DNA from: Nitrospirota bacterium
Lineage (GTDB): Bacteria > Nitrospirota > Thermodesulfovibrionia > Thermodesulfovibrionales > JdFR-86
DNA length: 64,000 bases
Direction: 5' to 3'
NCBI GenBank assembly: GCA_963721805.1
Contig: CAVRJY010000002.1
Span: 288,001 to 352,000, forward strand
Shown: positions 13,380 to 49,891 of the stretch, one piece after another
Position numbering within the stretch: position 1 is the first letter of the stretch
How the letters are laid out: every line of letters begins with the position of its first letter
The notes under the pieces: model-generated
Seen by the model: the letters and a program-made list of their open reading frames with translations, nothing else
What the model was told of the DNA's origin: nothing
Database searches by the model: none
Made by a program: the position numbers and the translations under genes

Positions 13380-13466
13380 GCCGGAGTGGCGGAATTGGCA
13401 GACGCAAGGGACTTAAAATCCCTCGGGGGCAACCCCATACCGGTTCAATCCCGGTCTCCGGTACCA
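13380..13466 (+). tRNA. tRNA-Leu(TAA), left attachment site of island 1
   Basis: GCCGGAGTGGCGGAATTGG..AGGGA-CTTAAAA-TCCCT, long variable arm, GTTCAAT, CTCCGGTACCA; TTGACA upstream at 13317. Confidence 0.97.
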
Positions 13467-13526: not shown

Positions 13527-13547
13527 TGGGGAAAGTTTGGGGAAAGT
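13527..13547. repeat. Putative integrase arm-type sites, left end of island 1
   Basis: TGGGGAAAGT twice at 11-bp period; matched by TGGGGAAGAT/TGGAGAAAGT at 43897-43917. Confidence 0.75.
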
Positions 13548-17760: not shown

Positions 17761-17977
17761 AAAGCAATGATAAGCATTCATTCACATAAATCGAAGGCTG
17801 GATTTAATGACTAAGGAGGCAACTTCTGCCTCCTTTTTTGTTTTTCCACCTCTGCTAATCTGCATTTGACAGCGAATTCCTAGGTTCGCTTTCCTCAATA
17901 ATTTCTTAATGCTAAAATGACAATACGGACCAAGCGCGGATCAATTCCGCGCCCCCGTATTGCTCATTAACAAATTA

Positions 17978-18217
17978 ATGGACAATGGTTCAAATGCGGC
18001 TCACGAGCTGAAAGAGTTATCATCGCCAGAAGAACTGGCCGAGTATTTTGGTTATTCCATAGCTACCGTCTATCGGTTCATGGCAAAGAGACAAATACCG
18101 TTTTGCAAGTTAGGGCGTGGTATAAAATTCAAAAGGGATGATGTCTTAAAGTTTATTGACGACAACCGCACTGACACCATTGTTAAGCAATTGTATGAGC
18201 GCAAGAAAAAGATATAA
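17978..18217 (+). CDS. Excisionase-family HTH protein
   Basis: SPEELAEYFGYSIATVYR..IPFCKLGRGIKF; overlaps integrase start. Confidence 0.88.
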   Translation: MDNGSNAAHELKELSSPEELAEYFGYSIATVYRFMAKRQIPFCKLGRGIKFKRDDVLKFIDDNRTDTIVKQLYERKKKI

Positions 18218-19722: not shown

Positions 19723-22700
19723 CTATGATTCCGTTGAAGGCTCGGCCGCATTGTCGTCGCCGTAAAAATGTTTCCTGAGTTCGATGCTTTGCTCAACACG
19801 TCTTTTTTCCGACGCAATTTGCCTATTTAACCTTTCAACATAGCCTTCTGCAAAAATACGAACTTTATGTTCATCATCCATAAGCCAGTCTTCAACTTCT
19901 TTCTTCTTACCCTCATAAGCATTTACGAAGCCAAATTCCCCAGATACAACTCCGGTGCTGGACAAAACGATGTCGACATTTGTCAGCAATTCATCCTGCT
20001 CTGGCAAAGCCAATATAATTTCTCTGCAAATATCTTTAAGAAAGTAACCGCCATCGTAACTTCTGAGTATTCCCAAAACAAAAGGAATGCTGTTCTGTTG
20101 CTTTGACCTGACAAGTTCGACTAGTATTTGGTTGAAAGCAGCTGGGAAGCTTGGGAATATGCTCTTAAGCAGTTTGCCCCCTCTAAACCTAAATAATGCT
20201 GGATCAGACTCAAACCACTCTTTTGTAATCGCTACCGCTTCATCGGGAATGGAAGAAAGCGGCTCATGGAGGTTGTGAAACATATAAGGCACAGCGTCAT
20301 AACGTTCAGCTAATGCCGAGGGATTCTCCTTCTTTAATCGTTCGCCAAAAAAACTGATGACTTTTGCAGGCCATTGTTGGGCTATTTGGAATAATATTTC
20401 TTCAGCTTCATGCTGAATTGAATTCACCAACAGAAGGTTTGCCAAAATAATATCTATGCCATTTTCGTCAATCTCGGACATAAATCTTTTCAGGCTTTTC
20501 TGAAACCACATCTGATGTATCCAACCTGTGACTTTAAGCTCGGTTAATTCCGCGATAGCGGGGATAAAAAGCTCTTGCACAAGATGTTTGTGAGCCTCAC
20601 TGTAAGTAGCTATGACAGCTCTTATAACTCCGATAAGCGCCGCTTCGTCCTTCAGCTCTTTAGCCTTAATGTATAGTTTCTTTAATAGGACTTCATCTAA
20701 ATGAGCACTGCTCGATAATACCCAAGAACACAAATAAAGATTTGTGCCTGCGTCTATTTGGCTATTCAAATATTTGATTGCATGTTCTCGGCCCGCCCCT
20801 TTTAATAAACCGCCAAGTATCCCTGCTATAAAACCACCTAGCTTATCTTCATGCTTGTCTATCAAATCAAGACAGAAGTCAGGATTGGTTTGGGCCAAAT
20901 TCTCTAAGAACTGAAAAAACATCGGGAATGTAGCTAAGTCATCCGATCTCGTCTTAGCACACTTAATAATTATTTCCTTCCAGAATACTGCATTGGTATC
21001 ATTTATTGACGCGGCAAATTCTCTGATCTTTTCATTGCGGTAGGTATCGGTTCTTGTGTAATCTCTATCACCAATTTCCCAATCCTCCATAAAAATAGAT
21101 TTGAAGCCTACAAGAGTTTTGTAGATTACATACTCGACATTGGCATTTAACTTATTCCTAAGCTGCATAATATCATCAATCAGAATTTCATTTTGTTTTC
21201 TTATTGACTCGCTGTATTCTTTGGCTTTGATGCCAACGGAACGCTGATATAAAAAGAATACATCTTGTTCGATGTCCTGAAGAATATCGTATTGTTCGCT
21301 GGAAGCGACTTCACTGTAAAACTGGACGATATTGGCGCAGTCTTTCAAGACAATCTCAAGCAATTCGTCTTCATAGCTTCCTTGCCACGGCAATTGCTCA
21401 GCCTTATCCAATACCATGATGATTTTTCTCTTCTCAGTGCCTGAAGTGGTCGTTTTGTATAAATCCTTTAATAACGTTAGCGCATCACTGCGAATAACGC
21501 TAAGCTCATCGCTGCCTAGCAAATTGAGCGTCTTAAATGTAACCTGTTTGTAAGTGCTATAAGTTCCATGTGCTGTGCAGTTCAGAACCTCTGCGCATAC
21601 CCTGATTATTAAGCCTTCAAGTGCGATAATCGCGCTTGGCTCCAAATCCTTAAGCTTGCCAATCAAAGTGCTCTGCACATATATCCCTGCTTGACGCAAT
21701 ACGTCCAGATCGTAGGCTGCCAAGTGGCCCACAACCTCGTTAATCTTTTCTTTCTCCTTCTCAGTATTTGAATGAAGGTATAGTTCCATCAAAGCTGACA
21801 AGGTGGCTTCAATATCAACGTAACGCACATCATTAAGAATGTCCAAGCATTTTTCAATCACCTCTTGAGAAGTCTTCCCCGGATAATTGCCGAAAGGTCC
21901 GCTAATTGGTATTGTCGGTTTTTCCCGCGCGATAGTTGATGCTGTTCTCACAACATCAAGGATTGCATCTAGCACCTTGGGAATTTCATCATAATGCGGA
22001 AGGACATAATCTCTGTATCGTTCAAGGATATTATATAGCTGATTATTATCTGTGCTATTTTGAATTTCAGTAATAATATCTCTGTCAAACAGCTGCTTGC
22101 CAGTTAAAAGCCTTTGATAGTCATGCTGTATTTTCTGAAACTCATATCCAGCGGGAAGTAGATATTGCTCCATAAGCTTCTTTAGGCGGGCATCAATCTT
22201 TTTGAACAGGCTATCTCCAAATCCACTTGTCTCCGTCTTTTTGTAAATCATATCGTGGGCTGTTTCTGACCAAGCGTGATTAAGAATCGTATGCACTTGG
22301 ATTTCACATTTTAGTCCCGCATACTCTGAGTATTCTGGCAATTTAGTGCGCTCTTCTTTCAGTTCAACCACAAAGTGATTAGCTATGTAATATTCATTAG
22401 CTGAAGCAGTCTTATCACTAGGATAATGGATTTTAGTGCTGTCCCAATGAACATTAAAATTGTCGCGGATGGTTCCTGATCCGATTAATTTGTCTACGTC
22501 GTCATTGTAATAAAAGATTATTCGGCATCCTGCCAGATCATTTATATGTTCTTCTATAACATCTGTATGACTCAAGCCTTTAAGTTCGAGCTTTTTGGCC
22601 AATGATTCAACTTCCTTAGCCCTAACTTGTATTTGCTGTAGATGGTATCCTTTGCCTTTGATTGCAGCATTAATAATATCTCTGACGGTCTTCGCCAGCC

Positions 22701-22746
22701 GTTCATACAGCACTCGCTTATGGGCGTTATATTCTTGCAGGTTCAT
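19723..22746 (-). CDS. RelA/SpoT synthetase-domain protein with about 800-aa C-terminal extension
   Basis: RAKEVESLAKKL, DLAGCRII, EIQVHTILNHAWSETAHDMIYK in first ~200 aa; no HD/TGS/ACT recognised; AT-rich. Confidence 0.88.
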   Translation of the reverse strand: MNLQEYNAHKRVLYERLAKTVRDIINAAIKGKGYHLQQIQVRAKEVESLAKKLELKGLSHTDVIEEHINDLAGCRIIFYYNDDVDKLIGSGTIRDNFNVHWDSTKIHYPSDKTASANEYYIANHFVVELKEERTKLPEYSEYAGLKCEIQVHTILNHAWSETAHDMIYKKTETSGFGDSLFKKIDARLKKLMEQYLLPAGYEFQKIQHDYQRLLTGKQLFDRDIITEIQNSTDNNQLYNILERYRDYVLPHYDEIPKVLDAILDVVRTASTIAREKPTIPISGPFGNYPGKTSQEVIEKCLDILNDVRYVDIEATLSALMELYLHSNTEKEKEKINEVVGHLAAYDLDVLRQAGIYVQSTLIGKLKDLEPSAIIALEGLIIRVCAEVLNCTAHGTYSTYKQVTFKTLNLLGSDELSVIRSDALTLLKDLYKTTTSGTEKRKIIMVLDKAEQLPWQGSYEDELLEIVLKDCANIVQFYSEVASSEQYDILQDIEQDVFFLYQRSVGIKAKEYSESIRKQNEILIDDIMQLRNKLNANVEYVIYKTLVGFKSIFMEDWEIGDRDYTRTDTYRNEKIREFAASINDTNAVFWKEIIIKCAKTRSDDLATFPMFFQFLENLAQTNPDFCLDLIDKHEDKLGGFIAGILGGLLKGAGREHAIKYLNSQIDAGTNLYLCSWVLSSSAHLDEVLLKKLYIKAKELKDEAALIGVIRAVIATYSEAHKHLVQELFIPAIAELTELKVTGWIHQMWFQKSLKRFMSEIDENGIDIILANLLLVNSIQHEAEEILFQIAQQWPAKVISFFGERLKKENPSALAERYDAVPYMFHNLHEPLSSIPDEAVAITKEWFESDPALFRFRGGKLLKSIFPSFPAAFNQILVELVRSKQQNSIPFVLGILRSYDGGYFLKDICREIILALPEQDELLTNVDIVLSSTGVVSGEFGFVNAYEGKKKEVEDWLMDDEHKVRIFAEGYVERLNRQIASEKRRVEQSIELRKHFYGDDNAAEPSTES

Positions 22747-22981: not shown

Positions 22982-23386
22982 ATGAATGAGGTTAAAACAT
23001 GTAATTTCGGAGAGCATCTTATGATTGATGGCTATGGCGGAGACCCCGAAAGATTAAACGACAAAGACTTGGTAATGCTTTCTTTGGTGGAGTTGCCGCA
23101 TCAGCTCGGCATGAAGAGGTTGAGCGATCCGCATGTCTATGAAGCCCCGGATAATGGGATGAAAGACCCCGGCGGCTGGAGCGGCGTTGTCATCATCGCC
23201 GAAAGCCACATCAGCATTCATACCTTCCCGCTGCGGAAGTTCGTGAGCATCGATGTCTATACCTGTATGAACGGCATAGATCGTGAATTTATCCGCAAGT
23301 ATTTTTCGGAGATATTCAAACTGCAAGATGTCGAGGAAAACTTTGTCAAAAGAGGGACGAGGTATCCGGTTTGCAATGTTTGTTAA
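22982..23386 (+). CDS. speD: SpeD-like pyruvoyl-dependent decarboxylase proenzyme (copy C)
   Basis: GEHLMIDGY, GGWSGVVIIAE-SHISIHTFP, DVYTC. Confidence 0.9.
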   Translation: MNEVKTCNFGEHLMIDGYGGDPERLNDKDLVMLSLVELPHQLGMKRLSDPHVYEAPDNGMKDPGGWSGVVIIAESHISIHTFPLRKFVSIDVYTCMNGIDREFIRKYFSEIFKLQDVEENFVKRGTRYPVCNVC

Positions 23387-24898: not shown

Positions 24899-26665
24899 AT
24901 GTTTGGTGATGATCTTGTCTTATTCTTAATAGTGCTCACCCTCATTTTGTGCTTGGGTGTTGTTATCTATATTCAGAACCGGAAAAATGCGCTGCATAAA
25001 TCTTTCCTTTATCTTTCTATTGCAATTGCAATCTGGGTATTCGCCAATTACATGGAAGATGCAGTATCGCTCTATAGTTTGAAAGCCGTTCTCACTCAAA
25101 TTGATTTTATCTCTGCTCTATATATGGCATATTTCTTTTTTGATTTCTGCTATGTCTTCTCTAAGGACCAAGTGCAAATACCAAGGATAAGCATTTACAG
25201 GAAAATATTATTTTCCATCTCGATCCTGTTTTCCTTATTGATATTGTTTTCTCAGGCAGTCATCGGGCACGTTCTTTTGTCGAATGGGGTTAGCAATCCG
25301 GTATATGGGAATTTGCACTTTCCGTATATTGCCTATTTAGTTTTAGTTGATCTCATGGGTTTATGGTTTCTCTTGATTAAATATGCAAAAGAAGATTCCT
25401 CTACAAAAAAACAAACTGTCTCAGTATTCCTCGGTTCTTTCTTGGTCGTCATTGCAATGGTAATTGCGAATATAGTTTTGCCTATGATAATGGGATACAG
25501 CTCAAATTTTCTGTTTTTATCGCGCTTAGGGGTTTACAGTGTATTAATCCTCATCGGATTCATGAGCTATTCAATTGCCAAGAGCAATTTCCTGAATATC
25601 AAGATTATTACGGCGCAACTTTTTTCAATCGCAATGGTGCTTGTGTTTTTCTATGAGATACTCTCTTCGCAAAGTAAGCAGGAACTATTCTTGCGGATAA
25701 TCCTTTTCCTTCTGGTTTTGTATTTTGCTTCGATGATCGTTACTTACGTCAAGCTGGAAGTCAAAAGAAAAGAAGAAGTGGAAATGCTCAACAAGGAAAT
25801 CAACGAACGCAAAGAAGAACTGCAAAAGATGTCAGACTCTCTGGCCGTCGCCAACGATCAGATGAAAAAGCTGGATCGCGCCAAATCCGAATTCATTTCC
25901 CGCGCCTCTCATGACTTACGAACACCGCTCACCGGCATCAAAGGCTATGTCTCGATGCTGGCGGAAGGCTCCTATGGGGAAGTGACTGACAAGCAAAAAG
26001 ACATTCTGGGCAAAACCTATTCCATCGGCGAAGGCATGCTGAGTCTGGTTGAAGACCTCCTCAGCGCCTCCAAGCTTGAAGCTCAAGGAATGTCGTATGA
26101 ATTCGGCAAATGGAAAATCGAAGATGTTTGCCAGCAGATTGTCGATACACTCTATCCCAAGGCCAAAGGCATGGGGCTCTACCTCGATTACCAGAAACCG
26201 CAAGAGGTCTTGCCGGAACTGGTCATTGATGGCAGGAGGATCAAAGAGGCCATTTCCAATCTGGTGGATAATGCGGTCAAGTATTCCAAACAGGGAGGCG
26301 TGACGGTGCGTCTGGAGCGCGCAGAGGCCTCCAATTACCAGCCGCCAGTCACCAGCAATCCCAATGAGAAGTTCACGATGATCACTGGGGCGGTGGCGAG
26401 AATCACAATATCCGATACCGGCATCGGCATTCCGAAAGACGAAATCCCATATCTATTCGCCAAATTCTCCCGTGGCAAGGATACGACGCGCCTCAATGCC
26501 GGTGGCACCGGCTTGGGCCTGTATATCTGCAAAGGCTTCATCGAGGGCAACGGCGGCAAGATTTGGGTGGAGTCCGAGGGTGACGGCAAAGGCTCGCGCT
26601 TTATCGTGGAGCTACCGATTGAAACACCCAAGGATATTTTGGAGCAATCAGTGGATAAGAATTAA
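24899..26665 (+). CDS. Sensor histidine kinase with multi-TM N-terminal domain
   Basis: Long hydrophobic N-terminus; SHDLRTPL H-box, NLVDNAVKY, DTGIGI, GTGLGL. Confidence 0.95.
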   Translation: MFGDDLVLFLIVLTLILCLGVVIYIQNRKNALHKSFLYLSIAIAIWVFANYMEDAVSLYSLKAVLTQIDFISALYMAYFFFDFCYVFSKDQVQIPRISIYRKILFSISILFSLLILFSQAVIGHVLLSNGVSNPVYGNLHFPYIAYLVLVDLMGLWFLLIKYAKEDSSTKKQTVSVFLGSFLVVIAMVIANIVLPMIMGYSSNFLFLSRLGVYSVLILIGFMSYSIAKSNFLNIKIITAQLFSIAMVLVFFYEILSSQSKQELFLRIILFLLVLYFASMIVTYVKLEVKRKEEVEMLNKEINERKEELQKMSDSLAVANDQMKKLDRAKSEFISRASHDLRTPLTGIKGYVSMLAEGSYGEVTDKQKDILGKTYSIGEGMLSLVEDLLSASKLEAQGMSYEFGKWKIEDVCQQIVDTLYPKAKGMGLYLDYQKPQEVLPELVIDGRRIKEAISNLVDNAVKYSKQGGVTVRLERAEASNYQPPVTSNPNEKFTMITGAVARITISDTGIGIPKDEIPYLFAKFSRGKDTTRLNAGGTGLGLYICKGFIEGNGGKIWVESEGDGKGSRFIVELPIETPKDILEQSVDKN

Positions 26666-27513: not shown

Positions 27514-28053
27514 CTATAGGCCGCTCAGAAGGCCCGTCAGGCTGTCGTAGCCTAGAATATAGAGCTTGGCCCATACGAACATCTGAAAACCGCTTGCAAA
27601 GACGAATAGGCACACCCGGAGCAAATTCGATGGGATTCTTTCCCGAAAGAAGATCAGCAGATGAGCCGAACCATCCCAGAGCAGCAGTCGGATGACAATA
27701 CAGGTCTCGATCAGGATGCCTACAACCTTTGTCCGCTTGGTGATGGCATTACTGAGCTTTCTTAGTGACTGCATGAGGGTAATATCCAGCTTAAACCTAT
27801 CCCCAAATACAATAACGGCACCCGAAACCATAAGATTCAGCCCCCAGAGGATCAACCATATTGGGGTGTCGGTAAGCCCGTAATGTTTGAGAAGCGTAAC
27901 TATGGCGGCAGTTACCGCAACCAGAAACCATTCAGTGGCGTATAAGGACGGCACGAAGATAGCGGTAGCGATACCTTTTCTGCTGAGTTCTCGTTCATCT
28001 CCCGTGCTATCAACTGCCACCCACTCGGAAAGTTTTCTTTGCCATTTTCTCAT
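27514..28053 (-). CDS. Small polytopic membrane protein
   Basis: ATGA overlap with GNAT; 4-5 hydrophobic segments. Confidence 0.8.
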   Translation of the reverse strand: MRKWQRKLSEWVAVDSTGDERELSRKGIATAIFVPSLYATEWFLVAVTAAIVTLLKHYGLTDTPIWLILWGLNLMVSGAVIVFGDRFKLDITLMQSLRKLSNAITKRTKVVGILIETCIVIRLLLWDGSAHLLIFFRERIPSNLLRVCLFVFASGFQMFVWAKLYILGYDSLTGLLSGL

Positions 28054-28607
28054 TCGGGAGTGACCTTCTGGTTTATCTTCGGTGAATTGGTATATGTGCC
28101 TTCGATATAATCAGTTGGTTCGGTTCCGTTATAGTATTTCCAGTTCTCAATCCTTCTTACCAGCGTCACCATGTCTTTATAGTATCTCTGTATAACCTGA
28201 CTCAGCCCATTGTCCACCCTTGAGTGCATGGATACCTTATTGCATCCTCTTGCCATGGATTCTTCGATGAGTTTTGAAAGCATCCGTAAGAAGCCCCGCC
28301 CTTTGCGGAACTCAGGCAGAATGGACATGGTTTCAACGTAATATCGTTGTCCATCCTCTCGCATCAAAGGGTCATCTTCTTTCAGTTCTTCAACGGCTTT
28401 GTTCTGAGGCAAGGCTAATAGGTATCCAACGATTTTGGCATCTTCTTTTAACAGAATAAAAATATTGCTATAATCCTTCATCATTTCTCTATTGTATTGT
28501 TCGTAATCTTCGTCTTGCCATTCATCCGGGAAAGACAAACTATCAACCTGAAGAATCTCCCGCAAAACCTGCTCATCAAACTCTGTGATGACTTCAGCAA
28601 TTTGCAT
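28050..28607 (-). CDS. GNAT N-acyltransferase
   Basis: IVGYLLA, YVETMSILPEFRKGRG acyl-CoA binding motif A. Confidence 0.88.
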   Translation of the reverse strand: MQIAEVITEFDEQVLREILQVDSLSFPDEWQDEDYEQYNREMMKDYSNIFILLKEDAKIVGYLLALPQNKAVEELKEDDPLMREDGQRYYVETMSILPEFRKGRGFLRMLSKLIEESMARGCNKVSMHSRVDNGLSQVIQRYYKDMVTLVRRIENWKYYNGTEPTDYIEGTYTNSPKINQKVTPE

Positions 28608-28609
28608 CG

Positions 28610-29926
28610 TTATTTCAAATAGCCCCATTTTCTCAGCAATGCCTTATCCTTTTCAATAAACTGAAGACCAATGTCATTTCTATAAAACATCTTGGGTATC
28701 AGGATTTTGTCTGTCAATTCATATGCTTTATCTCTTGCCTTTTGAACTGTTTTCCCAACGCCTGTAACACACATAACATACCCGCCATTAGCGGATATGA
28801 CATATTCCTGTTCATCGCTACTATTAACATCCGATGAAACTTCCGAGAAATGTATATGCGTCCATTCTTCGTCAGTTAATTTCTGACGAAAGAATATCCT
28901 CAATCCTTGCGGATTATACTTACCGTTGATAGGAGTGTAAGGAAATGGAGGAACGGCAAGCAGGACTACAATACCGAAGCCTCTTCTCCATTTCAGATCA
29001 AAGGGTTTACCATCAGCTATTGCCTTTAATAATTCACCCGACTTGGACAGATTGAGGACACTTCGCAGATGCACGGCTGGATAGCCAAATCTTGGAGTAG
29101 CCTCTAAGGGGGTGGCCCCTGTTTCGTTGACAATACAATTGATGTCAATATCTCCCCTAAAGTCTATTTTCTGGAGATAGGGTTTCAGTTTTGCAAGAGT
29201 TTCATTAAACAGTTTGTTGTCCTCATTGTCGTCATACCACATGAGCGTTCCCATCTCTGATGTCTTTGGACCAAGATTTCCGGGGAACAATTTCTTGTGC
29301 TCGATATTCATTTCAATGGGGCCGACCCAATCTTTCCCGTTAAAATACCGCGCAACAGCTATCTCAACTCCATTGACCATTTGTTGTAAATCAATGGAGC
29401 GGCACTCCGTGTTATTAAACTTTGCATAATTACTGAGCAGGCTGATTACATCACTGCCGTCGGGCATTCTTCCAACATAAGAAAAACATTTATCAGCATG
29501 ACCATTTTGTTTAACAACCCATTGCCCACGATTTTTCTCAATAAAAGTTATAGCATCCTTAGGTGATACGAAATGCCGTGATTGCACAGTCTTCAACCCG
29601 CATTTCTTGAATATTTGTTGTGCATGGAACCTGTCAAACTCTAAACTATCGCCACCCTCCGAGCCGCCCACTACGGAATATCCCTGCTCCCTGAGCTCAT
29701 CCTGTATTTTCCCAAACCCCGACTGGTCAAAAATTATGAGACCATCCTTGCCGACCCATGGGAGTTCTTTTTCCCAATTTTTCACTTTGGTCAGTCCGAA
29801 GCCATCACCGACCTTTGAAAAAGCTCGTTCTTTGATGAATACCTTTACTTCATGCCCTTCCTGTTTCAGCCTTTGAGCAAGGTCTAATATATCACCATCT
29901 CTGCTTATTATTATTATTATTCTCAT
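28610..29926 (-). CDS. PurD/GARS-like ATP-grasp ligase (divergent)
   Basis: LEFDRFHAQ, WVVKQNG, EHKKLFPGNLGPKTSEMG, LEATPRFGYP, C-terminal YRNDIG; lacks canonical PurD GSGGREHA. Confidence 0.85.
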   Translation of the reverse strand: MRIIIIISRDGDILDLAQRLKQEGHEVKVFIKERAFSKVGDGFGLTKVKNWEKELPWVGKDGLIIFDQSGFGKIQDELREQGYSVVGGSEGGDSLEFDRFHAQQIFKKCGLKTVQSRHFVSPKDAITFIEKNRGQWVVKQNGHADKCFSYVGRMPDGSDVISLLSNYAKFNNTECRSIDLQQMVNGVEIAVARYFNGKDWVGPIEMNIEHKKLFPGNLGPKTSEMGTLMWYDDNEDNKLFNETLAKLKPYLQKIDFRGDIDINCIVNETGATPLEATPRFGYPAVHLRSVLNLSKSGELLKAIADGKPFDLKWRRGFGIVVLLAVPPFPYTPINGKYNPQGLRIFFRQKLTDEEWTHIHFSEVSSDVNSSDEQEYVISANGGYVMCVTGVGKTVQKARDKAYELTDKILIPKMFYRNDIGLQFIEKDKALLRKWGYLK

Positions 29927-29938
29927 GGTTGTTACAGG

Positions 29939-30482
29939 CTAATCCTGTTTCCTCCATCTTTGGATTCGATTAATTTTCTCTTCTAGAAACCACTGAAAGT
30001 AACCTTTATATCTTTTCTGTAGGTCAGGCAGTTTCCAATCATTATCAGTCACATGTGTTCTGCATTGTTTTGCACCACACAGACATTTAATTTTGTATGG
30101 TCTTGTCCCTTTCGTTCTTGAAAGCACCATTCCATAATCAAAAGTCACTTCCGCCCCCCCCCCGTATATTCTTCATCGCCACGAGGAATATCTGCCCTTT
30201 AAAGCCTGCATTCGGGTTACAGCTATGATTTATAAATGTGCCGTCAACTTTCGCCTCAGATATACTTCTTATGCCTATGATAAATTCTTCACTTATTTGC
30301 ATTCCGTAATCTCTTATGGATTCAGGTAATTTTTCCTCTTCTGCGCTCGTCATAATGTATCCACCAAATATGCATAAAAGGGTTCCCTTGCGAATAGCTT
30401 CTTTCGCATAAAGCCCTTTGCCCGTTAACTTAGTAATACGCAGCTGAAGTTTTGGGTTTATCCATGAAAAGGGGTGTTCCAT
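29939..30482 (-). pseudogene. SET-domain methyltransferase with post-SET, frameshifted at a G10 tract
   Basis: GKGLYA and INHSCNPN in 30138-30482; EVTFDY and CLCGAKQCR in 29939-30148; deleting one G at 30154-30163 fuses them into 180 aa. Confidence 0.88.
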
Positions 30483-30486
30483 GATT

Positions 30487-30888
30487 TTATTGCGTAGGTG
30501 AGATAACCCTAAACCCCCGTTTCATCTTTCTTGCCTTGACCCTATCATGCTTGAGGTTGTCCGTAATGTGCTTTACGATGCTGTCCGTCTCGGCTTTCCC
30601 TCCGCATGTGAAGACATCACAGGCGACATATTCATATTCATACCAAGTGTGGAATGATATGTGAGAAGCGGACAGAAGGAAATACCCCGTGAGTCCGTAT
30701 GGGGAAAACTTGTAGAAGTGCTTATTCAGCAGCTTTGCCTCTGTCCCAGCCATGGCTTTCGTCAACAGCTTTTCCCAAAAGGGCTGGGAGTTTAGCTGCC
30801 GCTTGTTGCACCCGAAAAACTCCAACAGGTAATGCACCCCATCGGGCGCACTATTCTTCAGATGCGTCTTGCTTCCCTTATTGGTCAA
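30487..30888 (-). CDS. speD: SpeD-like decarboxylase proenzyme (copy B, variant A-SH cleavage site)
   Basis: GVHYLLEFFGC, FSPYGLTGYFLLSA-SHISFHTW, CDVFTCG. Confidence 0.85.
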   Translation of the reverse strand: MTNKGSKTHLKNSAPDGVHYLLEFFGCNKRQLNSQPFWEKLLTKAMAGTEAKLLNKHFYKFSPYGLTGYFLLSASHISFHTWYEYEYVACDVFTCGGKAETDSIVKHITDNLKHDRVKARKMKRGFRVISPTQ

Positions 30889-30972
30889 GAAGACATCCCC
30901 CTATAAGGCCGTAACATCAGGAATAATTATACATTATTTTCAATTGGCATGCGGGAATTTCTGCTGTAGCCG

Positions 30973-31380
30973 CTACGCAATGTTGCATATGGGATATTTC
31001 GTCCCTCTCTTGATGAAATTGGTTTCGATCTCGTGAAGGGCGAACTTCTCTCTAAAATAGCTTTCAATTATCGCGGGCTCCATTCCGTTTTTGCAGGAAT
31101 AGACATCGGCGCTCAGAAACCTGCGGGCCGGAAAAGTATGGATACTGATATGGCTTTCGGCCACGACCACAAATCCGCTCCAGCCGCCGGGGTCTTTGCC
31201 AAAAGTATCGGGAGCAAAATATACCTGAGGCTCTGCCAGCTTGTTCATGCCGAGGGAATCCGGCAACTCATGAAACACGCTTAAGACCAGCTCTCGGTTA
31301 TTGAGCTTTTCAGGATCGCCGCCGTAACCGTCGATGGTTAAATGTTCGCCAAAATTACAGAATGAACTTTTCGTGTTCAC
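30973..31380 (-). CDS. speD: SpeD-like decarboxylase proenzyme (copy A)
   Basis: AAGGAG RBS and GTG; GEHLTIDGY, GGWSGFVVVAE-SHISIHTFP, DVYSC. Confidence 0.9.
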   Translation of the reverse strand: MNTKSSFCNFGEHLTIDGYGGDPEKLNNRELVLSVFHELPDSLGMNKLAEPQVYFAPDTFGKDPGGWSGFVVVAESHISIHTFPARRFLSADVYSCKNGMEPAIIESYFREKFALHEIETNFIKRGTKYPICNIA

Positions 31381-31400
31381 GTTCTCCTTAACTCGCTGTC

Positions 31401-31428
31401 TTGACAGCCTTATTCTTCGCGTTAGACT
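31401..31428 (+). promoter_or_regulatory. Putative promoter for the recombinase, outside the invertible segment
   Basis: TTGACA-16 nt-TAGACT. Confidence 0.55.
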
Positions 31429-31442
31429 GAATTTGATGCCCT

Positions 31443-31470
31443 TAAGCTCCTCTTTGTAAAGAGGAGCTTA
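31443..31470. repeat. Left serine-recombinase crossover site
   Basis: TAAGCTCCTCTTT-GT-AAAGAGGAGCTTA: perfect 13-bp inverted arms around a 2-bp asymmetric core. Confidence 0.88.
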
Positions 31471-31485
31471 GAGCCCGAAAGAGGT

Positions 31486-32253
31486 ATGAATCATGGGAAA
31501 CAAAGCAAAAAAAAGCAGAAGGTAGTCGCCTACTGCCGGGTATCCACTTTGGAGCAGAAAAAGCGGGGACATGGGATCGATATTCAGATTCGAGACGTTT
31601 CGATATTTGCCGAACGGCACGGGATGATGGTTGAAAAGTTCTACATGGATGAAGCAGTAAGCGGCACTAAGGAAAATAGAAAAGCCCTGAATCAACTGAT
31701 GAGAGATTGCAGGGCCGGAAGGATTGGCATCGTGATCCTCCCCTCGTTAGATCGGCTTTCGAGGGAAGTCAGGATCGCTGAAAACCTGTTTCATGAATTT
31801 GAAAAGCTGCGAATCAAAATTCTCATCGCCGATATGCCGCAGTATAACGGGGAACACAAGGATATTTTGATCAGGCAGATTCTTGAAGCTATTTCAGAGG
31901 AGAACCGCCGGGAGATAATTGAAAGATTGCTGAAAGGACGGCAGGAACGAGTCAGGAAAGGCTTATTCCCCGGCGGCACTCTGCCCTATGGCTACGTTAG
32001 AGAAGATAAGGCCGTCAGAGTTTATCCGCAAGAAGCTGAAATCGTGGCTAGGATTTATGAGCTGGATGCTGACGGACAGGCAGGTAAAGCTATCGCGGAT
32101 GCCCTTAATGAAAGCGGACGGGTGCGGAGAAATGGTAAACCTTGGACTCAAAGGCAAGTTTGCCGAGTCCTCAAGCATGAAAGAATATATCGGGAAGGGA
32201 TGCTGCATTACGGAGATATTATGGTGAACAACAGCGCCTTTGCTGTTCTTTGA
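31486..32253 (+). CDS. Serine recombinase (catalytic plus recombinase domain), probable DNA invertase
   Basis: AYCRVST nucleophile, SLDRLSR, GG.LPYGY, PQEAEIVARIYEL, IADALN; ends with no zinc ribbon or coiled coil. Confidence 0.92.
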   Translation: MNHGKQSKKKQKVVAYCRVSTLEQKKRGHGIDIQIRDVSIFAERHGMMVEKFYMDEAVSGTKENRKALNQLMRDCRAGRIGIVILPSLDRLSREVRIAENLFHEFEKLRIKILIADMPQYNGEHKDILIRQILEAISEENRREIIERLLKGRQERVRKGLFPGGTLPYGYVREDKAVRVYPQEAEIVARIYELDADGQAGKAIADALNESGRVRRNGKPWTQRQVCRVLKHERIYREGMLHYGDIMVNNSAFAVL

Positions 32254-32312
32254 AGTTAGGTGTATATTGGCTCATCTATTTTTAGGCTTTCAATCAATAT
32301 ATTGCAAATCTC

Positions 32313-32345
32313 TTGACAGGCCTGTCTAAATTGAAATACTATAAT
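32313..32345 (+). promoter_or_regulatory. Outward-facing sigma70-type promoter inside the invertible segment
   Basis: TTGACA (32313)-18 nt-TACTAT, overlapping TATAAT (32340); palindrome GACAGGCCTGTC (32315-32326) overlaps -35. Confidence 0.7.
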
Positions 32346-32357
32346 CCAGTTTTGAAA

Positions 32358-32385
32358 TAAGCTCCTCTTTACAAAGCGGAGCTTA
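32358..32385. repeat. Right serine-recombinase crossover site, inverted relative to left
   Basis: TAAGCTCCTCTTT-AC-AAAGCGGAGCTTA; reverse complement matches the left site at 27/28. Confidence 0.88.
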
Positions 32386-32569
32386 AAATAAAATGTGAGG
32401 ATCACAGGTCCTCTTTTTCGTATTATACCCTCTTCCACAATTCGCTTTTTAAGGTCAGTCAGCTTGACAGTCCTTTGATTTTGTGTTTTGATTCTTCGTT
32501 AAATATATTTGCCGAAATAGGCAAATTCTCCCGCCTTTTTTAAATCATTGGCTGCGATAATCTAAAACC

Positions 32570-32846
32570 ATGCGAAAGAAATATTCCCAAGGTTCTATTA
32601 ATAGTCTGCGGAAATACAGGAAAGGCAAGGGGTCTGAAACAGAAAGAGGTAGCGGAGATTCTGGAGATCAATAACAGCATGGTTTCACGCTGGGAAAAGG
32701 GCTCGTGTATACCGGATTCTCTAAACCTGATGGATCTCTCCATGCTTTACCGGACGGCAACTGACGCATTATTCAGCGACTACAGAGCCATGCGCAAAGA
32801 AACAATCCTGCAAAGAGAGGCGCTGGTTATAGCTAATAGAAATTAA
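32570..32846 (+). pseudogene. XRE-family HTH regulator, frameshifted
   Basis: NSLRKYR then shifted frame KARGLKQKEVAEILEINNSMVSRWEKG; one extra base near 32620. Confidence 0.75.
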
Positions 32847-32857
32847 TATACAAAACT

Positions 32858-33265
32858 ATGGAGCATATTGATCACTACCTGAAGACAAGCAAATTTAATG
32901 AGGCCGGGCAATATGATCAGCCCGCGCCGGTTATCCGTAATATGGGGAATGGCGGCTGGTATTGGATAGATAAAAACATCTTAAAGGTCTACGCCAAGAG
33001 CTTAGGGCCTTCAGCTATCGCGGTCTACAATGTCCTTGCGCTGTTTTCAAACGCCAAGACGCAAGCCTGCTATCCTTCCCACAAGACCATAGGCAGAATT
33101 GCCGGGATGAACAAAAAGACAGTCAGCCAGAAGATGCGGCACTTGGAAAGGGCGGGTCTAATTTGCCGGGAATGGCAAAAAGGACAGACCATCTATTACT
33201 TGCTCGATGTCCGGCAGGCGACAATAACGACCAAGGAAGTGGAAGAAAAGCCCCCTGACGGGTGA
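32858..33265 (+). CDS. Winged-HTH replication-initiator-like protein
   Basis: WYWID..LGPSAIAVYNVL..CYPSHKTIGRIAGM..TV...LERAGLI. Confidence 0.8.
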   Translation: MEHIDHYLKTSKFNEAGQYDQPAPVIRNMGNGGWYWIDKNILKVYAKSLGPSAIAVYNVLALFSNAKTQACYPSHKTIGRIAGMNKKTVSQKMRHLERAGLICREWQKGQTIYYLLDVRQATITTKEVEEKPPDG

Positions 33266-34164: not shown

Positions 34165-37011
34165 ATGGTCAAGAACATTCTCGCCTGTATAAACAGTCGA
34201 ATTGTCATAAGCCTTTTTAACCTATTTCTGCTATTCTCATTGCCCCTAATTTCTGGGTGTAGTGTTGCCCTTTCGCCACTTTCCAGCAAGGAATATCTAA
34301 TGTATTATGATGGGGATTATGAGAAAACAATACAATACTTTGACAATGGGACAAGCTTACTTTCAGCACACGAAAAGAAAAGAATCCTTGATGAAAACAT
34401 CAAAAGAATAAAAACAAATCAGGAAACAACTTTCGAATTCATCTACTACAGATTCGATCAGGAATATCTGATAAAGTCACTCTTAGCTACGGGTGAATTT
34501 GACCGAGCACTAAAACTCTGTGACGAGGGACTTAAAGAGTGCGAGATGTTCGCGGACCTCTTTAAGCGATACAAATATAGCCCCGAAAGTCCTGTTGAGA
34601 CGAATCATCAGCTTAGATTTGACCTGTTGCGGCTTAAGGGGTATGTCATATGGTTTAAAACTGGAGACGAAGACACCGCTTTCAAATATTTCAATAAGTC
34701 TATGGCGAGTGATCCATCCGACCAGCAATACATCACATTCCTTGATTCATTGGGTAAACAGAAATTAGCATTTCTTATGGACAACGCCTATTTTAATGAC
34801 AAGATTCTTGGCAAGCATCGAGAGGCTCTGGCCTATTTTCAGCAAGTTGTGGGTCTTTGCGATAAGTTAACGCTACTCGACATTGACATGCAATATGGTT
34901 TTAAGGAGATGGCCTACCTACGAATGATGACCATCAAGATGCATCTAGGCGAGCTTGAAGAAGCCAAGAAAGAACTCGACAAATGGAATGACCTGATGAA
35001 CACGTTTGTTATTCGCAGTGCCAGTCTGGTTGTGAAGAATTCTAAGTTATATCGAGGCCCCCTTGCTGAATCCTATTCTTATGCTGGGGCCTTGTATGCT
35101 CTGGAGAGAGATTTCGAAACATCAAAAATATATTTTGATAAGGCGCTTGATGTAATAAAAACGATTGAACCGGATAAGCATAATATGTTTGATCGCATAG
35201 CTTTGGGCACTTACTATACGCTTTACGGGACTTATTACTGCGGTCTGCAATCCGGAAAGCTTGAAGAGGCAATTGAAAATACGGACAAGGGCTTGAATTA
35301 CGTGCCACCCTTTTTCATGGCGGATGCATCATCTGATTTGGACATCGAAACCGCATATAGATATTCAGCCGAACTCTATTTTATAAAGAAGGACTATGCT
35401 ACAGCAAAAGGGCGTGCGCTAAAAGCCTTGGAATATGCGCTAAAGAAACAAAACAAGGTCGCTGCCGCTGCTGCGCATACAATTTTAGGACAAATTTATT
35501 ACGCGAAAAATGAAAAGTCAGCTGCACGGCAGGAATACGAGAAAGCGCTTAGAATAGCTGAACATCATGGAAACGAAAGCACAGATGACTGGAAGCTCTA
35601 TTATGGCCTCGGTCAGGTTTACGAAGACTCCGGTGACAAGACCGGCGCGCTGAAATATTACGGAGACGCAGTCCGCGAGGTTGAGAAACTTTGGAGTGGC
35701 AGATTCAAGGATACAGTCAAGCAAGTTAGCTTTATCGATGACCGGCTCATAGTTTTCGAGCCGATGATCAGAATCCTCCATGCGCAGAAAAATGATAAGG
35801 AAGCCGTTCGTTATATGGAGATGTCAAAAGCCAGAACGTTTTATGAGGCCTCGCCATTTTATCCCGCCGAGGCGGGCAAGAATATAGAAGCATGGTCTCC
35901 TGTTAAGCCCATGAGTATCAATGATCTAAGGGCCTCGGTCTCTGATACAACAGCGATATTGGAATATTATGTGGGAGCCCGTTCTGTCATGGCCGCCATT
36001 ATCACCAAGAAAGAAGTTCATATTGAAGAGCTGAAAATTGATAATTTACAGAAGAAAATAATTGCCTTTAATCTGTATATGGCAAACCCAGATTATGAGT
36101 ATCCGACTGAGAGAGGCATAGAGCTATATGCTGCTTTAGTGGCTCCATTTACAAAATATTTAGCTGGTTATGACTCACTCTGTATCATCCCACATGGGGT
36201 GCTGCATTATCTTCCGTTTCAAGCGCTCATTACCGGAAAAGATACGTCGTCATTTTTAATCGATAAATATAAAGTATTTTACGCTCCGAGTTTGACAATC
36301 CTGAACACGGTCTATAAATCTAACCGGACTAATAAGGTCAAATTGTTAGCGGTTGCGAATTCTCTTGAGGTGGATGTTAAAGACCTAAATCTTGGAAAGG
36401 ATACACTCCCTAGGCTTGCGAATGTTATCAAGGAGGCAAGGGAGGTTGGGCAGCTGTTTGACGATACCAATAAGACCATTATCGTTGACGATAAGGCGAC
36501 AAAGACTACAGTGAGCGATACCGCGAGCGCATACGACATATTATTGTTTTCAACTCATGGCCTCATGGTTAGCAATGAGCCATTAAAATCATGCATTTTT
36601 CTCTCAAAGGATAATGAGAATAACGGGCGGTTATCTGTCGATGATATTGAAAAGTTAAAGCTGAATTCAAACTTGGTAATATTAAGTGCGTGCGAAACAG
36701 GACTTGTTTCGAGCTACGCGGGCAATGGTGATGATAATAATCCTTATGACACTAGATTTCCACTTGGAGATGATCTGGCGGGACTTCAACGAGCGTTTAT
36801 GAAAGCAGGCTCAGCCTCAATTCTTTCAACACTTTGGTCAGTAAATGATACGGCAACAAAATCGTTTATTGTAGATTTTGTGAAGCATTATAAAGGTGGA
36901 GATGATAAAATCTCTGCTTTACAAACAGCTGCGCTTAATATAAAATCAACTGAAAAATGGAAGCATCCATACTACTGGGCGGCATTTATCCTGAGCGGCG
37001 ACTGGAGGTAG
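34165..37011 (+). CDS. TPR plus CHAT (caspase-like protease) domain protein, putative lipoprotein
   Basis: LISGC lipobox; TPR-like repeats; IIPHGVLHYLPF, STHG, LSACETG, LWSVND, HPYYWAAF. Confidence 0.92.
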   Translation: MVKNILACINSRIVISLFNLFLLFSLPLISGCSVALSPLSSKEYLMYYDGDYEKTIQYFDNGTSLLSAHEKKRILDENIKRIKTNQETTFEFIYYRFDQEYLIKSLLATGEFDRALKLCDEGLKECEMFADLFKRYKYSPESPVETNHQLRFDLLRLKGYVIWFKTGDEDTAFKYFNKSMASDPSDQQYITFLDSLGKQKLAFLMDNAYFNDKILGKHREALAYFQQVVGLCDKLTLLDIDMQYGFKEMAYLRMMTIKMHLGELEEAKKELDKWNDLMNTFVIRSASLVVKNSKLYRGPLAESYSYAGALYALERDFETSKIYFDKALDVIKTIEPDKHNMFDRIALGTYYTLYGTYYCGLQSGKLEEAIENTDKGLNYVPPFFMADASSDLDIETAYRYSAELYFIKKDYATAKGRALKALEYALKKQNKVAAAAAHTILGQIYYAKNEKSAARQEYEKALRIAEHHGNESTDDWKLYYGLGQVYEDSGDKTGALKYYGDAVREVEKLWSGRFKDTVKQVSFIDDRLIVFEPMIRILHAQKNDKEAVRYMEMSKARTFYEASPFYPAEAGKNIEAWSPVKPMSINDLRASVSDTTAILEYYVGARSVMAAIITKKEVHIEELKIDNLQKKIIAFNLYMANPDYEYPTERGIELYAALVAPFTKYLAGYDSLCIIPHGVLHYLPFQALITGKDTSSFLIDKYKVFYAPSLTILNTVYKSNRTNKVKLLAVANSLEVDVKDLNLGKDTLPRLANVIKEAREVGQLFDDTNKTIIVDDKATKTTVSDTASAYDILLFSTHGLMVSNEPLKSCIFLSKDNENNGRLSVDDIEKLKLNSNLVILSACETGLVSSYAGNGDDNNPYDTRFPLGDDLAGLQRAFMKAGSASILSTLWSVNDTATKSFIVDFVKHYKGGDDKISALQTAALNIKSTEKWKHPYYWAAFILSGDWR

Positions 37012-41124: not shown

Positions 41125-41932
41125 GAAATTTGTTGCAAAAACGACTAAGGTTAAGCATGAGGGTATTGTCCCGCTTGCTTCAAAGATGTCGAAGCATAAT
41201 ATCAAAGCAGCAATCGCGCCTGTTTTTAATCTGGATGAACTTAATGTAGTTGAACTGTGTAATCAGTTGAAAAATGAATTAAATGATCGCTCAGAGCCTT
41301 GGTTTCTATTTACAAGTGCAAGAAGAAATCAAAAGCTTTCGTTAAAGCGGGAACGAATTGAGATACTTCAAAGAACGGTTGAAAGCATGATAAGCGTCAA
41401 TGCATCCTTGGCAAAGGCAAGGGCGGACATGCTTCTTTCACAGGCCGTTACCGAAAGCATTATCAATAACCATTTTATTGAGCAAGCTTTATTGGATGAG
41501 CTAAGGCAGAGAGAGCATGTGGATAAGCTCCAGTCTGTTGATGACACAGCACGCGAAAGGCTTGTGCGGTTAGAATCTATTGAGATAGCTAATTTGCAGG
41601 CCAGAGCTGAAATCAATGCATTAGAAGCCAAGACAAAGGGTGAGCATGCCAAGGCTGATTTAATTAGAAATGTCGTTGATAGTATCAATCTAAAAGACTT
41701 GCCCCAGATTTTACAGACGTATGTTATTACGTCAGTTATAAATCCCAGCGGCAATGCCACAGTCGGAGACTTGGAATTGCAGTCTGAATTGCGGGAATTC
41801 GTAACGAAAGAGGCTGCTGCCAAGGCAAGATTATTAAACGCTCAGGCAGATCAGAGTCAAAGCCAAGCCGCCATAAGCAAGGCCACGGCTGTTGATACAG
41901 TTCGTAAAATGAGATCAAGAAAGCGTGATTGA
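41117..41932 (+). CDS. Coiled-coil hypothetical protein
   Basis: Ala/Glu/Lys-rich helical ORF overlapping both neighbours. Confidence 0.75.
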   Translation: MSKKFVAKTTKVKHEGIVPLASKMSKHNIKAAIAPVFNLDELNVVELCNQLKNELNDRSEPWFLFTSARRNQKLSLKRERIEILQRTVESMISVNASLAKARADMLLSQAVTESIINNHFIEQALLDELRQREHVDKLQSVDDTARERLVRLESIEIANLQARAEINALEAKTKGEHAKADLIRNVVDSINLKDLPQILQTYVITSVINPSGNATVGDLELQSELREFVTKEAAAKARLLNAQADQSQSQAAISKATAVDTVRKMRSRKRD

Positions 41933-43115
41933 TCTTGGCCTTGCCTTGGTAGCCGAGCAAGGCCCATGTTTTCTCTCAATAGATGATCTCTTTAAACATA
42001 CCTATATAGTCGGGAAAACCGGCACCGGCAAGTCCACCTTCATGCTCAACCTTGCCCTGGAGGTTATACACGAGGGCTGGGCCTGCATCTTTATCGAACC
42101 CAAGGGCAGCGTTATCGCCGCGCTTAACAGCCTGACAGATAAAGATCGTGTGGTTAAAGTATCCATAGATCATCCTGTTACGATTAACCCGCTTAGAAAG
42201 AAAGGCCGTCACATTAATGACCTGATTTCCGAGTTCGGGGAAGTGCTCGACATCCTCGTGAAGCAGACAAGCTCCAACCCGGAGTTGACTGTTATGATGA
42301 AGGAAATTGTGACACAGGCGATTCTATGCTTCGATGAGAAGCAACGGAATCTCGATTACCTTTATGAATTTCTGAGAAGCCCGCATATCAGGGAAAAACA
42401 TTTTGAGAATAGGGACCGTCCGCAATACTGGAAGGATGTTGCACTTGATCCGCGCACAAGGAAGCCCAATATGGCGATGTTTCAAGAAAGCGCCACGAGA
42501 CTGGCTACCCGACTTGCGGGTATGGTTTCCGATCCAAGAATAAAGAAGATCGTGTGCGGTGAAAATGAACTGGACATAGGACAGATTGCAGAACAAAAGA
42601 AAGTCCTATTGGCCGACACATCGATGATGACTTTTGATAACAGAGTTTACATTACGTCGCTGATCGCCCATTATGTAAAAAGCTATGTTGAGTTTGAACG
42701 TAGAAAGCATCCGCTCATTGTTTTCATCGACGAATTCCAGACCGCCATCAGCCCAGTCTTCTCGCACTTATTAGCTTTGGCTAGAGGGTATAAGGTGGGG
42801 TTTGTGCTGGCACATCAGGAATTCGGACAGATAGACAAGACTGTATTGAAATCAGTCTTAGGCAATGCCAATACGATAGTGTGTTTCACTGTCGGATATG
42901 ACGAGGCTGACAGGATGCGGCACGAGTATGCCAGTGGCGTGAAGGCAGATGATTTTATTCAATTAGGTGACTATGAAGCACTGATTAAAATAAAGAACAA
43001 GGTCCATAGGGTGATGACGTTCCCGCCGCCTGATATGCCTGAGCCTGCTGAAGAGGAGTTGCCCCCTGAACGCAAAGCATGGAACTTTATGCGAGAGGGC
43101 TGGTTTCAATGTTGA
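41925..43115 (+). CDS. Second VirD4/TraD-like coupling ATPase
   Basis: HTYIVGKTGTGKS, IEPKG, FIDEFQ, ARGYKVGFVLAHQ, LGNANT. Confidence 0.9.
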   Translation: MIDLGLALVAEQGPCFLSIDDLFKHTYIVGKTGTGKSTFMLNLALEVIHEGWACIFIEPKGSVIAALNSLTDKDRVVKVSIDHPVTINPLRKKGRHINDLISEFGEVLDILVKQTSSNPELTVMMKEIVTQAILCFDEKQRNLDYLYEFLRSPHIREKHFENRDRPQYWKDVALDPRTRKPNMAMFQESATRLATRLAGMVSDPRIKKIVCGENELDIGQIAEQKKVLLADTSMMTFDNRVYITSLIAHYVKSYVEFERRKHPLIVFIDEFQTAISPVFSHLLALARGYKVGFVLAHQEFGQIDKTVLKSVLGNANTIVCFTVGYDEADRMRHEYASGVKADDFIQLGDYEALIKIKNKVHRVMTFPPPDMPEPAEEELPPERKAWNFMREGWFQC

Positions 43116-44162: not shown

Positions 44163-44234
44163 AGGCGCGTAGCTCAGTGGGAGAGCGCTACCTTGACACG
44201 GTAGAGGTCGGGGGTTCGATACCCCCCGCGCCTA
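44163..44234 (+). tRNA. tRNA-Val(GAC), left att of island 2; CCA not encoded
   Basis: AGGCGCG..CTACC-TTGACAC-GGTAG..GTTCGAT..CGCGCCTA. Confidence 0.95.
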
Positions 44235-47332: not shown

Positions 47333-47389
47333 CATTGACAGCATTGACAACCCCCCATGCCTTAATTAGCTCTGTCAATGTTGTCAATG
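47333..47389. repeat. Iteron-like inverted repeats, candidate origin of island 2
   Basis: CATTGACA-g-CATTGACA, 23 nt, TGTCAATG-t-TGTCAATG. Confidence 0.7.
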
Positions 47390-49786: not shown

Positions 49787-49891
49787 GTTATACCCCCTCC
49801 AGCTTGAATACTCTGAAGAGAACGTGAACAATTGATTCTGGCAGCAACCCCCAACAAGCGAGGCCGACAATGATAACCTTCAATGTTGCTC

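Follow-up and report, generated by a model that had tools for sequence, protein, structure and literature searches.

A probable DNA inversion switch beside a speD operon in a Nitrospirota genome, encoding a serine recombinase that resembles the front half of a phage integrase

Invertible promoter switches are familiar from gut and pathogenic bacteria, in which they are flipped by small Hin- or Mpi-type enzymes or by tyrosine recombinases. The archetype is the H segment of the Hin/hix system, which underlies the flagellar phase variation of Salmonella through the fljBA operon. This segment of about 1 kb harbors the recombinase gene together with an outward promoter. Each end is formed by a short palindrome with a 2-bp asymmetric core; the two palindromes are inverted relative to each other, and transcription of the output operon passes through one of them. 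The Mpi recombinase of Bacteroides is also a small enzyme, and acts in trans on many short promoter segments. Here we describe a 915-bp stretch in a Nitrospirota bacterium (GenBank assembly GCA_963721805.1), which is probably a site-specific DNA inversion switch that serves a neighboring speD operon. The window that was analysed encompasses 64,000 nucleotides of contig CAVRJY010000002.1 (positions 288,001 to 352,000, forward strand), and all coordinates below refer to it. By analogy, the closest known system in both function and layout is the Hin/hix H segment, and the locus shares with the Hin, Gin, Cin and Pin systems a self-encoded segment of about 1 kb, an outward promoter-like element and inverted palindromic sites. 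The component parts are as follows.

31401-31428, plus strand: P_A, a promoter-like site (TTGACA-16-TAGACT, scoring 10/12) outside the left site and pointing inward, the likely recombinase promoter
31443-31470: left recombination site, TAAGCTCCTCTTT-GT-AAAGAGGAGCTTA, with 13-nt arms and a GT core at 31456-31457
31458-32370: putative invertible segment between the cores, as deduced from the sites
31486-32253, plus strand: serine recombinase open reading frame (ORF) of 255 aa, assigned by Pfam, alignment and structure model
32313-32342, plus strand: P_in, a promoter-like site (TTGACA-18-TACTAT, scoring 10/12) within the segment, pointing out through the right site
32358-32385: right recombination site, TAAGCTCCTCTTT-AC-AAAGCGGAGCTTA, with 13-nt arms and an AC core at 32371-32372, inverted with respect to the left site
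32397-32423, plus strand: terminator-like hairpin with a 7-bp stem and a T-run, 12 nt past the right site and facing P_in

The arms of the left site are fully complementary (26/26 positions) and those of the right site harbor a single mismatch (25/26). The start-to-start distance of the two sites is 915 nt, and they pair with each other as inverted repeats over 29 nt at 97% complementarity. When the site pattern was sought with up to 3 mismatches, the only two matches in the 64-kb window were the sites themselves, and 100 shuffles gave none; a degenerate pattern with up to 2 mismatches likewise found only these two in the whole genome of 2.78 Mb in nine contigs, with none for the reversed control. 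These pattern searches thus detected no further site copies in either the window or the genome, in which the recombinase gene is also present as a single copy. The arrangement is that of the small invertases, which use two palindromes of around 26 bp, inverted and with an asymmetric 2-bp core. It does not resemble the res sites of Tn3 and gamma-delta, which consist of three subsites in direct repeat, for there is just one 28-bp site on each side and the two are inverted.

The recombinase itself has a different affiliation. Pfam recognizes the Resolvase domain (PF00239) at residues 13-159, with an E value of 8.9e-29, and the first half of the Recombinase model (PF07508) at residues 181-238, with an E value of 2e-9. 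An alignment of 86 sequences, large serine recombinases among them, shows no variation at Y16, R18, S20, Q34, R65, R90 and R93, and the protein therefore has the catalytic domain, nucleophilic serine and conserved arginines of the serine recombinase superfamily. An AlphaFold model built on an 86-sequence alignment reached a pLDDT of 94.4 and was used throughout, in place of an earlier version from 23 sequences (pLDDT 59.9). With this model, Foldseek placed large serine integrases at the top (9dxf, 9iu2 and 9dxh; TM 0.61-0.76 on the query). VIA-align matched model residues 9-255 to residues 11-284 of the 535-residue chain 9dxh_A (Z 17.3, rmsd 3.2 A, 243 residues), and model residues 145-255 to the C-terminal fragment of the Listeria innocua integrase, 4kis_D (Z 11.1, 104 residues). 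The same program aligned gamma-delta resolvase with a Z of 14 over 178-182 residues. The catalytic domain superposes on those of Sin, TP901-1 and gamma-delta resolvase (Z 15-17), Gin (3uj3) aligns with the catalytic domain only (model residues 13-150), and a sequence search of the PDB returned matches confined to that domain. NCBIfam gave sub-threshold matches only (CcrB, XisF, IS607 and Mpi), of which the Mpi model NF009949 scored 27.6 bits against a cut-off of 272 and covered residues 13-97 alone.

In the predicted structure, then, the enzyme is composed of a catalytic domain, a long helix and a complete recombinase domain, and stops where the zinc-ribbon/coiled-coil module begins: its last residue, 255, aligns to residue 284 of the 535-residue integrase. 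No zinc ribbon was matched by Pfam and there are only three cysteines, at positions 17, 75 and 226. A CxxC...CxxC regular expression had no match even in the long relatives, and hence is uninformative on this module. In contrast to the small invertases, which are proteins of around 190 aa with a C-terminal helix-turn-helix, the window enzyme has 255 aa and an integrase-type recombinase domain in this position, and so does not belong to their family. With the large serine integrases, such as those of Bxb1, phiC31 and the Listeria innocua prophage (9dxh, 9iu2, 4kis), it shares superposable catalytic and recombinase domains and crossover at a 2-bp core, whereas it differs in its early end, in having two alike sites of 28 bp rather than two unlike attP and attB sites of 40-50 bp, and in a layout for inversion rather than integration or excision. 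Lacking the zinc ribbon and coiled coil, and with sites that are alike, it is therefore not a large serine integrase either. The first-pass annotation of this DNA had already described a recombinase gene between two inverted 28-bp palindromes with GT and AC cores, and had likened the enzyme to a large serine recombinase without its zinc-ribbon/coiled-coil module rather than to a small Hin-type protein; both descriptions hold, the first at the exact coordinates and the second on the combined evidence of Pfam, Foldseek and VIA-align.

Further differences from the Hin, Gin, Cin and Pin systems are that the best full-length structural match is a large serine integrase, that the likely recombinase promoter lies outside the segment, that the hosts are environmental bacteria (Nitrospirota, Desulfobacterota and similar) and that the switch rides on mobile islands. 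Inversion by the small invertases depends on a recombinational enhancer bound by Fis; none is known for the present locus, and no search aimed at one was made. In comparison with the Mpi-type invertons of Bacteroides, promoter inversion by a serine recombinase would likewise turn neighboring operons on or off, whereas the window enzyme is encoded inside its own single segment. Full-text searches of the open literature retrieved no work that describes these enzymes as invertases. Nor did term look-up in two inverton surveys (PMC9881135 and PMC11602134) turn up any mention of them in this role.

The enzyme belongs to a sizeable family. A 90%-clustered collection contained 640 relatives at E <= 0.001; the best 120 of these are 241-316 aa in length, 64-82% identical and all endowed with the same two Pfam domains, and the few hosts named among them are Nitrospirota, Deltaproteobacteria and Brocadiaceae. 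Among the best 150 representatives of 50% clusters, 63 have 230-300 aa and 53 have at least 400 aa, so mid-size proteins of this kind are common. For comparison of their surroundings, 86 loci were assembled, namely the window, 5 from reference genomes and the best 80 of 141 metagenome candidates. This set, numbered with an L prefix, includes the near-identical pairs L030/31, L062/63, L064/65, L071/72 and L046/48, and L019 is the same as G034. In 69 of the 86, a site precedes the recombinase start by around 40 nt. Sites occur on both sides in 44 loci, upstream only in 25, downstream only in 10 and on neither side in 7; many of the incomplete loci are short contigs, and the figure of 44 counts only partners with complementary cores. 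The core-to-core distance ranges from 803 nt to several kb, and the long forms carry extra genes within the segment, so that whole genes would flip along with the promoter. In general the cassette would read inward flank promoter, site, recombinase, optional cargo and outward promoter, and site.

In L049, L050, L058, L024, L026, L028 and L030, cargo of 0.5-3.4 kb lies between the recombinase gene and the far site, and examples of cargo are a UbiA-type prenyltransferase, a protein with CHAP and carboxypeptidase-regulatory domains and an MvdD-like ATP-grasp enzyme.

Comparison of the cores across these loci is consistent with a role in strand exchange. Downstream partners were sought blind to the core, by the 26 arm positions alone (at least 19/26 matching), and the cores were read afterwards. 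Of the 68 loci that have both an upstream site and a stop codon, 40 had a partner, and in all 40 the two cores are reverse complements of each other. On the sense strand of the recombinase, upstream and downstream cores are AC/GT in 38 of these loci, GT/AC in the window and TT/AA in L021. In eight further loci with arm scores of 16-18, GT likewise lies beside the stop codon. Most AC/GT loci share ancestry and so are not independent; the window and L021, however, represent two separate cases in which both cores have changed together. These joint changes point to selection for matched 2-nt overhangs, which a mere operator would have no need of. They bear on an alternative that we hold to be improbable, in which the recombinase is a repressor and the palindromes are its operators, or in which they are remnants of a former switch, and inversion of the segment has ceased in this genome. 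The left site does separate P_A from the start of the recombinase gene, as is typical of autoregulation, some relatives possess a single site and decayed copies exist (L046/L048 and the Ca. Manganitrophus plasmids described below). Yet the sites are nearly perfect in 26/26 and 25/26 arm positions, and the reading frame and catalytic residues of the recombinase are intact.

The second line of evidence is that flipped states occur among the relatives, where pairwise BLAST of related loci places the breakpoints at the sites. The pairs are the following.

L069 versus L071: segment of 831 nt at 83.6% identity on the same strand; flanks of 205 nt (87.8%) and 64 nt (87.5%) swapped and reverse-complemented
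L057 versus L071: segment on the same strand; flanks of 157 nt and 80 nt, both swapped
L027 versus L022: segment on the same strand; left flank of L027 the reverse complement of the right flank of L022 over 1637 nt at 73.4%
L062 versus L066: segment on the same strand; one flank, 61 nt

Inspection of the printed flanks revealed a flank of the upstream type lying downstream, or vice versa, in L036, L043, L055 and L083, and likewise in L046/48, and one cluster of TGGACA-type flanks is made up of 13 upstream and 3 downstream members. Since single-linkage clustering of flank 60-mers merged two promoter types, pairwise BLAST and the printed flanks were relied on instead. At the contig end of L022, an 84-nt promoter flank is found identical and inverted on both sides of the segment (positions 1-98 versus 963-1046), a hint of an assembler product that could have come from a sample with both orientations. 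The first-pass annotation had proposed that homologous loci be searched for the same sites and for the flipped state, and both are found: the sites recur in relatives, and flipped states are seen in at least three lineages, which again argues against operators or relics. The one public run that matched the genome (word share 0.07) provided a single 211-nt contig on speD (31050-31260), and left the switch uncovered.

L046/L048 appear to be decayed, flipped members of a sub-group with TC cores, in which the far site is mutated and a normal start codon is absent.

It could also be imagined that the cassette is a small mobile element that inserts either way round, such that the flipped relatives reflect independent insertions. 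The cassette does turn up among many unrelated sets of genes, as well as on mobile elements. However, integration by a serine recombinase leaves junction cores in direct orientation, and here they are inverted in 40/40 loci; moreover, the conserved unit reaches past the sites to the flank promoters, and what is swapped in the flipped pairs is the same pair of flanking stretches, broken at the sites. We consider this scenario very improbable. Taken together, the comparative evidence supports the two sites acting as serine-recombinase crossover sites in inverted orientation, and makes it highly likely that inversion is the mechanism by which the locus operates.

By this mechanism, recombinase dimers would bind both 28-bp sites, cut at the GT and AC cores, rotate by 180 degrees and rejoin the ends. 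As the cores are reverse complements, inversion of 31458-32370 is the sole product with matched overhangs. In the present orientation, P_A would transcribe the recombinase through the left site, where binding of the protein would probably be repressive, and P_in would fire through the right site into the terminator-like hairpin. With P_in directed into this hairpin and no promoter-like site of its own, the speD operon would be left unserved at present. After inversion, P_in would read leftward through the left site into the speD/SET/ATP-grasp/GNAT operon, and P_A would read antisense into the recombinase gene. Transcripts from P_in would begin about 7 nt past 32342, and would reach the operon in the flipped form alone and end near 32413-32423 in the present one. 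The speD operon would accordingly be OFF now and ON when flipped, an assignment that we favor slightly over its alternatives. We infer from the arrangement of these elements that this copy is active, which of its orientations is ON, and what the promoters and terminator do.

P_A is the likely promoter of the recombinase. A P_A-like site that points inward, at a fixed spacing of 12-14 nt outside the upstream site, was detected in 36 of 61 loci, as against 2.0 in shuffles and 0/61 on the opposite strand. This would place the left site in the 5' leader of the recombinase transcript, a position suited to autorepression. In the clade nearest to the window, P_in also has counterparts: 12/50 loci have an exact TTGACA that faces outward no more than 80 nt inside the far site, versus 1/50 on the other strand. 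Its distance from that site remains 35-52 nt even in L019, L024, L026 and L028, where 2.7-5.9 kb separate the site from the recombinase gene. The geometry in L026, TTGACA-18-TAGTAT, matches that of P_in, so that TTGACA-18-TAnTAT is common to it and the window. L026 has flank homology to the window on the right, as L025 has on the left. The hairpin beyond the right site folds at -8.9 kcal/mol in the window, and its counterpart in L026 at -14.3 kcal/mol (z -3.7); the RNA hairpin of the left site has no U-run after it. A second, weaker inward element of the TTGAC-N-TGATAAA type, termed P_B, occurs on the other flank of many loci (10/50 under strict criteria versus 3.8 in shuffles) and may serve to maintain recombinase expression after flipping. 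The right flank of the window has a TATAAT alone, on the minus strand at 32422-32427, which lacks a -35 element and was not among the sites listed by the promoter scan.

The putative output operon begins at 31380, 62 nt to the left of the left site, and comprises the following.

27514-31380, minus strand: putative switched operon of two speD-like genes, SET, PurD-like ATP-grasp ligase, GNAT and a 179-aa ORF (Pfam, NCBIfam)
30973-31380, minus strand: speD (Pfam)
30487-30888, minus strand: speD (Pfam)
30138-30482, minus strand: SET-domain gene (Pfam)
28610-29926, minus strand: ATP-grasp ligase, PurD-like (Pfam/NCBIfam)
28050-28628, minus strand: GNAT (Pfam)

A consensus scan of the minus strand from 31381 to 33000 revealed no promoter-like site for this operon. 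On this side of the locus, too, the initial reading of the letters has stood up. The minus-strand speD-speD-SET-ligase-GNAT operon that it had placed just left of the left site is borne out by Pfam, and its failure to see a convincing operon promoter by eye is matched by the scan. The outward promoter that it had assigned to the right end of the segment and the recombinase promoter that it had assigned to the outside are both reflected in the placements retained among relatives.

Conservation of gene orientation suggests that the output lies on this flank. In 42 of 51 loci the gene behind the P_A flank is oriented outward. Its start mostly falls 37-120 nt from the core of the site, too close for it to have its own promoter in between. 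Neighbors on the other side are unbiased (24 plus, 22 minus). In the flipped loci L071, L066, L055, L083 and L022, the P_A-flank gene is co-directional with the recombinase, so transcripts that leave through the site would reach it only in the flipped state. The genes in this position are diverse, and include speD (in the window and L019), PEMT-like methyltransferases (5 loci), other methyltransferases, an ATP-grasp ligase, large proteins of the Ig/fn3 type, CsgG-like proteins, a LuxR regulator and many of unknown function. PADLOC, applied to both flanking operons, gave nothing decisive.

It has to be considered, as a minor possibility, that the segment inverts but that its output is the mobile element itself, either through a choice of flank promoter for the recombinase or through the HTH and TPR-CHAT genes to the right, or that the cassette is selfish and has no host output. 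The locus certainly sits in mobile DNA. Between about 14,000 and 56,000 the window contains a 42-kb island with 41-52% G+C, compared with 60-64% outside, which also holds excisionase-like HTH_17 genes and the following.

13547-14503: tyrosine integrase, adjoining tRNA-Leu at 13380-13466
18156-19328: tyrosine integrase
44252-45331: tyrosine integrase, adjoining tRNA-Val at 44163-44234
16483-17781 and 41925-43115: coupling-protein-like ATPases
47384-49870: DUF3987/Toprim primase

The low G+C content together with the integrases, ATPases and primase indicates that the switch is located on one or more integrated mobile elements, and the island probably represents two or more of these in tandem. 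An output directed at such an element would also fit the patchy distribution of the family, which was detected in 4 of 401 sampled genomes of the phylum (E <= 1e-50) and in 2 of 41 close relatives, as well as the great diversity of the switch-adjacent genes and the many relatives that have inward promoter-like elements on both flanks (the P_B counts given above) and no internal promoter. Against it stand the orientation bias and tight spacing of the P_A-side gene, with no such bias on the right, the association of the outward TTGACA with the far site in the clade of the window, and the terminator-like hairpin that bars the path to the right-hand genes in both the window and L026.

A switch of the speD operon by inversion remains the preferred account, and several findings weigh against it. 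With regard to inversion, 25 of the 86 loci possess the upstream site only, including 7 with a TC core that have no partner within 5 kb, and the nearest relatives whose flanks are homologous (L019/G034, L025 and L026) all share the orientation of the window, which would also suit operators or relics. The core polarity of the window differs from that of all other two-site loci and is not producible by recombination: a conservative reaction cannot alter core polarity relative to the gene, so both sites must have mutated for it to arise. As guesses, the route may have been four transitions, or two in-place flips of the palindromes by template switching. With regard to the output, a promoter scan of 2.1 kb gave 4 sites versus 3.5 expected from shuffles, such that P_A and P_in are not significant on their own and derive their weight from conservation in relatives. 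Under strict criteria for a promoter, the enrichment of P_in is weak (7/50 loci versus 3.4 in shuffles); segments of around 807 bp, in which the far site lies 18 nt past the stop codon, have no room for it, and L015, L021 and L030 have a terminator-like hairpin in its place, so the output logic is not uniform across the family. Finally, the terminator hairpin of the window is modest, with a z of -1.6.

The reversed polarity was also considered as an assembly artefact and this was rejected, because both sites have changed together and no orientation puts GT beside the left flank.

The sub-group with TC cores consists of L033, L034, L036, L037, L039, L042 and L098, in which the sequence downstream, over 155-4982 nt, contains no GA partner.

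Members of the family are also carried by the Ca. Manganitrophus plasmids CP114562, CP114554 and CP114559 (L107-L109; 199-329 kb), in copies that are 52-58% identical. The upstream AC site is present in these plasmid loci and a GT-like site lies 3.2 kb downstream. The copies are repeatedly frameshifted, annotated as 65-aa fragments and all in one orientation, and hence add nothing on flipping. Recombinases on viral contigs are just 25-27% identical and fall outside this family.

We give about even odds to the broader proposal that these loci represent an undescribed and widespread class of mid-size serine invertases, which lack the zinc ribbon and coiled coil, use minimal identical 28-bp sites, and form a portable cassette on mobile elements of Nitrospirota, Desulfobacterota and other environmental bacteria that toggles the operon behind the flank promoter. 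For want of a directionality module, such enzymes may be bidirectional and free of accessory factors. The same switch logic would then be found in another branch of the serine recombinases, one that is represented in hundreds of environmental metagenome sequences, often on mobile elements, and adjacent to very diverse genes, among them those for large surface proteins, methyltransferases and enzymes that modify small molecules. Should the family prove active, phase variation would reach into lineages that grow slowly and are uncultured, such as the Nitrospirota, and the enzymes would offer a compact, reversible and possibly factor-independent recombinase with short sites, a possible tool. They would also bear on the origin of directionality in the large serine integrases. 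For this genome, the prediction is that the speD/SET/ATP-grasp/GNAT pathway is expressed in only part of the population.

The right flank of the switch harbors two genes that are homologous to the right flank of L026.

32570-32846, plus strand: XRE-type HTH gene, frameshifted
32858-33265, plus strand: HTH_36 gene

The N-terminus of the XRE gene (32570-32674) lies in one frame and the remainder in another, and L026 has an intact homologue of 93 aa; the split gene is either a pseudogene or an assembly error. The operon to the right of the switch also encodes a 948-aa TPR-CHAT protein (34165-37011), the likeness of which to Csx29 of type III-E systems is weak (51.9 bits against a cut-off of 300), and no CRISPR genes accompany it in its operon. 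On the other side, a third speD-like paralogue is found on the plus strand at 22982-23386, adjoining a 1007-aa protein with a RelA/SpoT nucleotidyltransferase region (19723-22746), and this region is followed by a HisKA_7TM histidine kinase (24899-26665) and two receiver-only proteins. In L019, speD, two unknown genes and a HisKA_7TM-type kinase are found together in one operon beside the switch.

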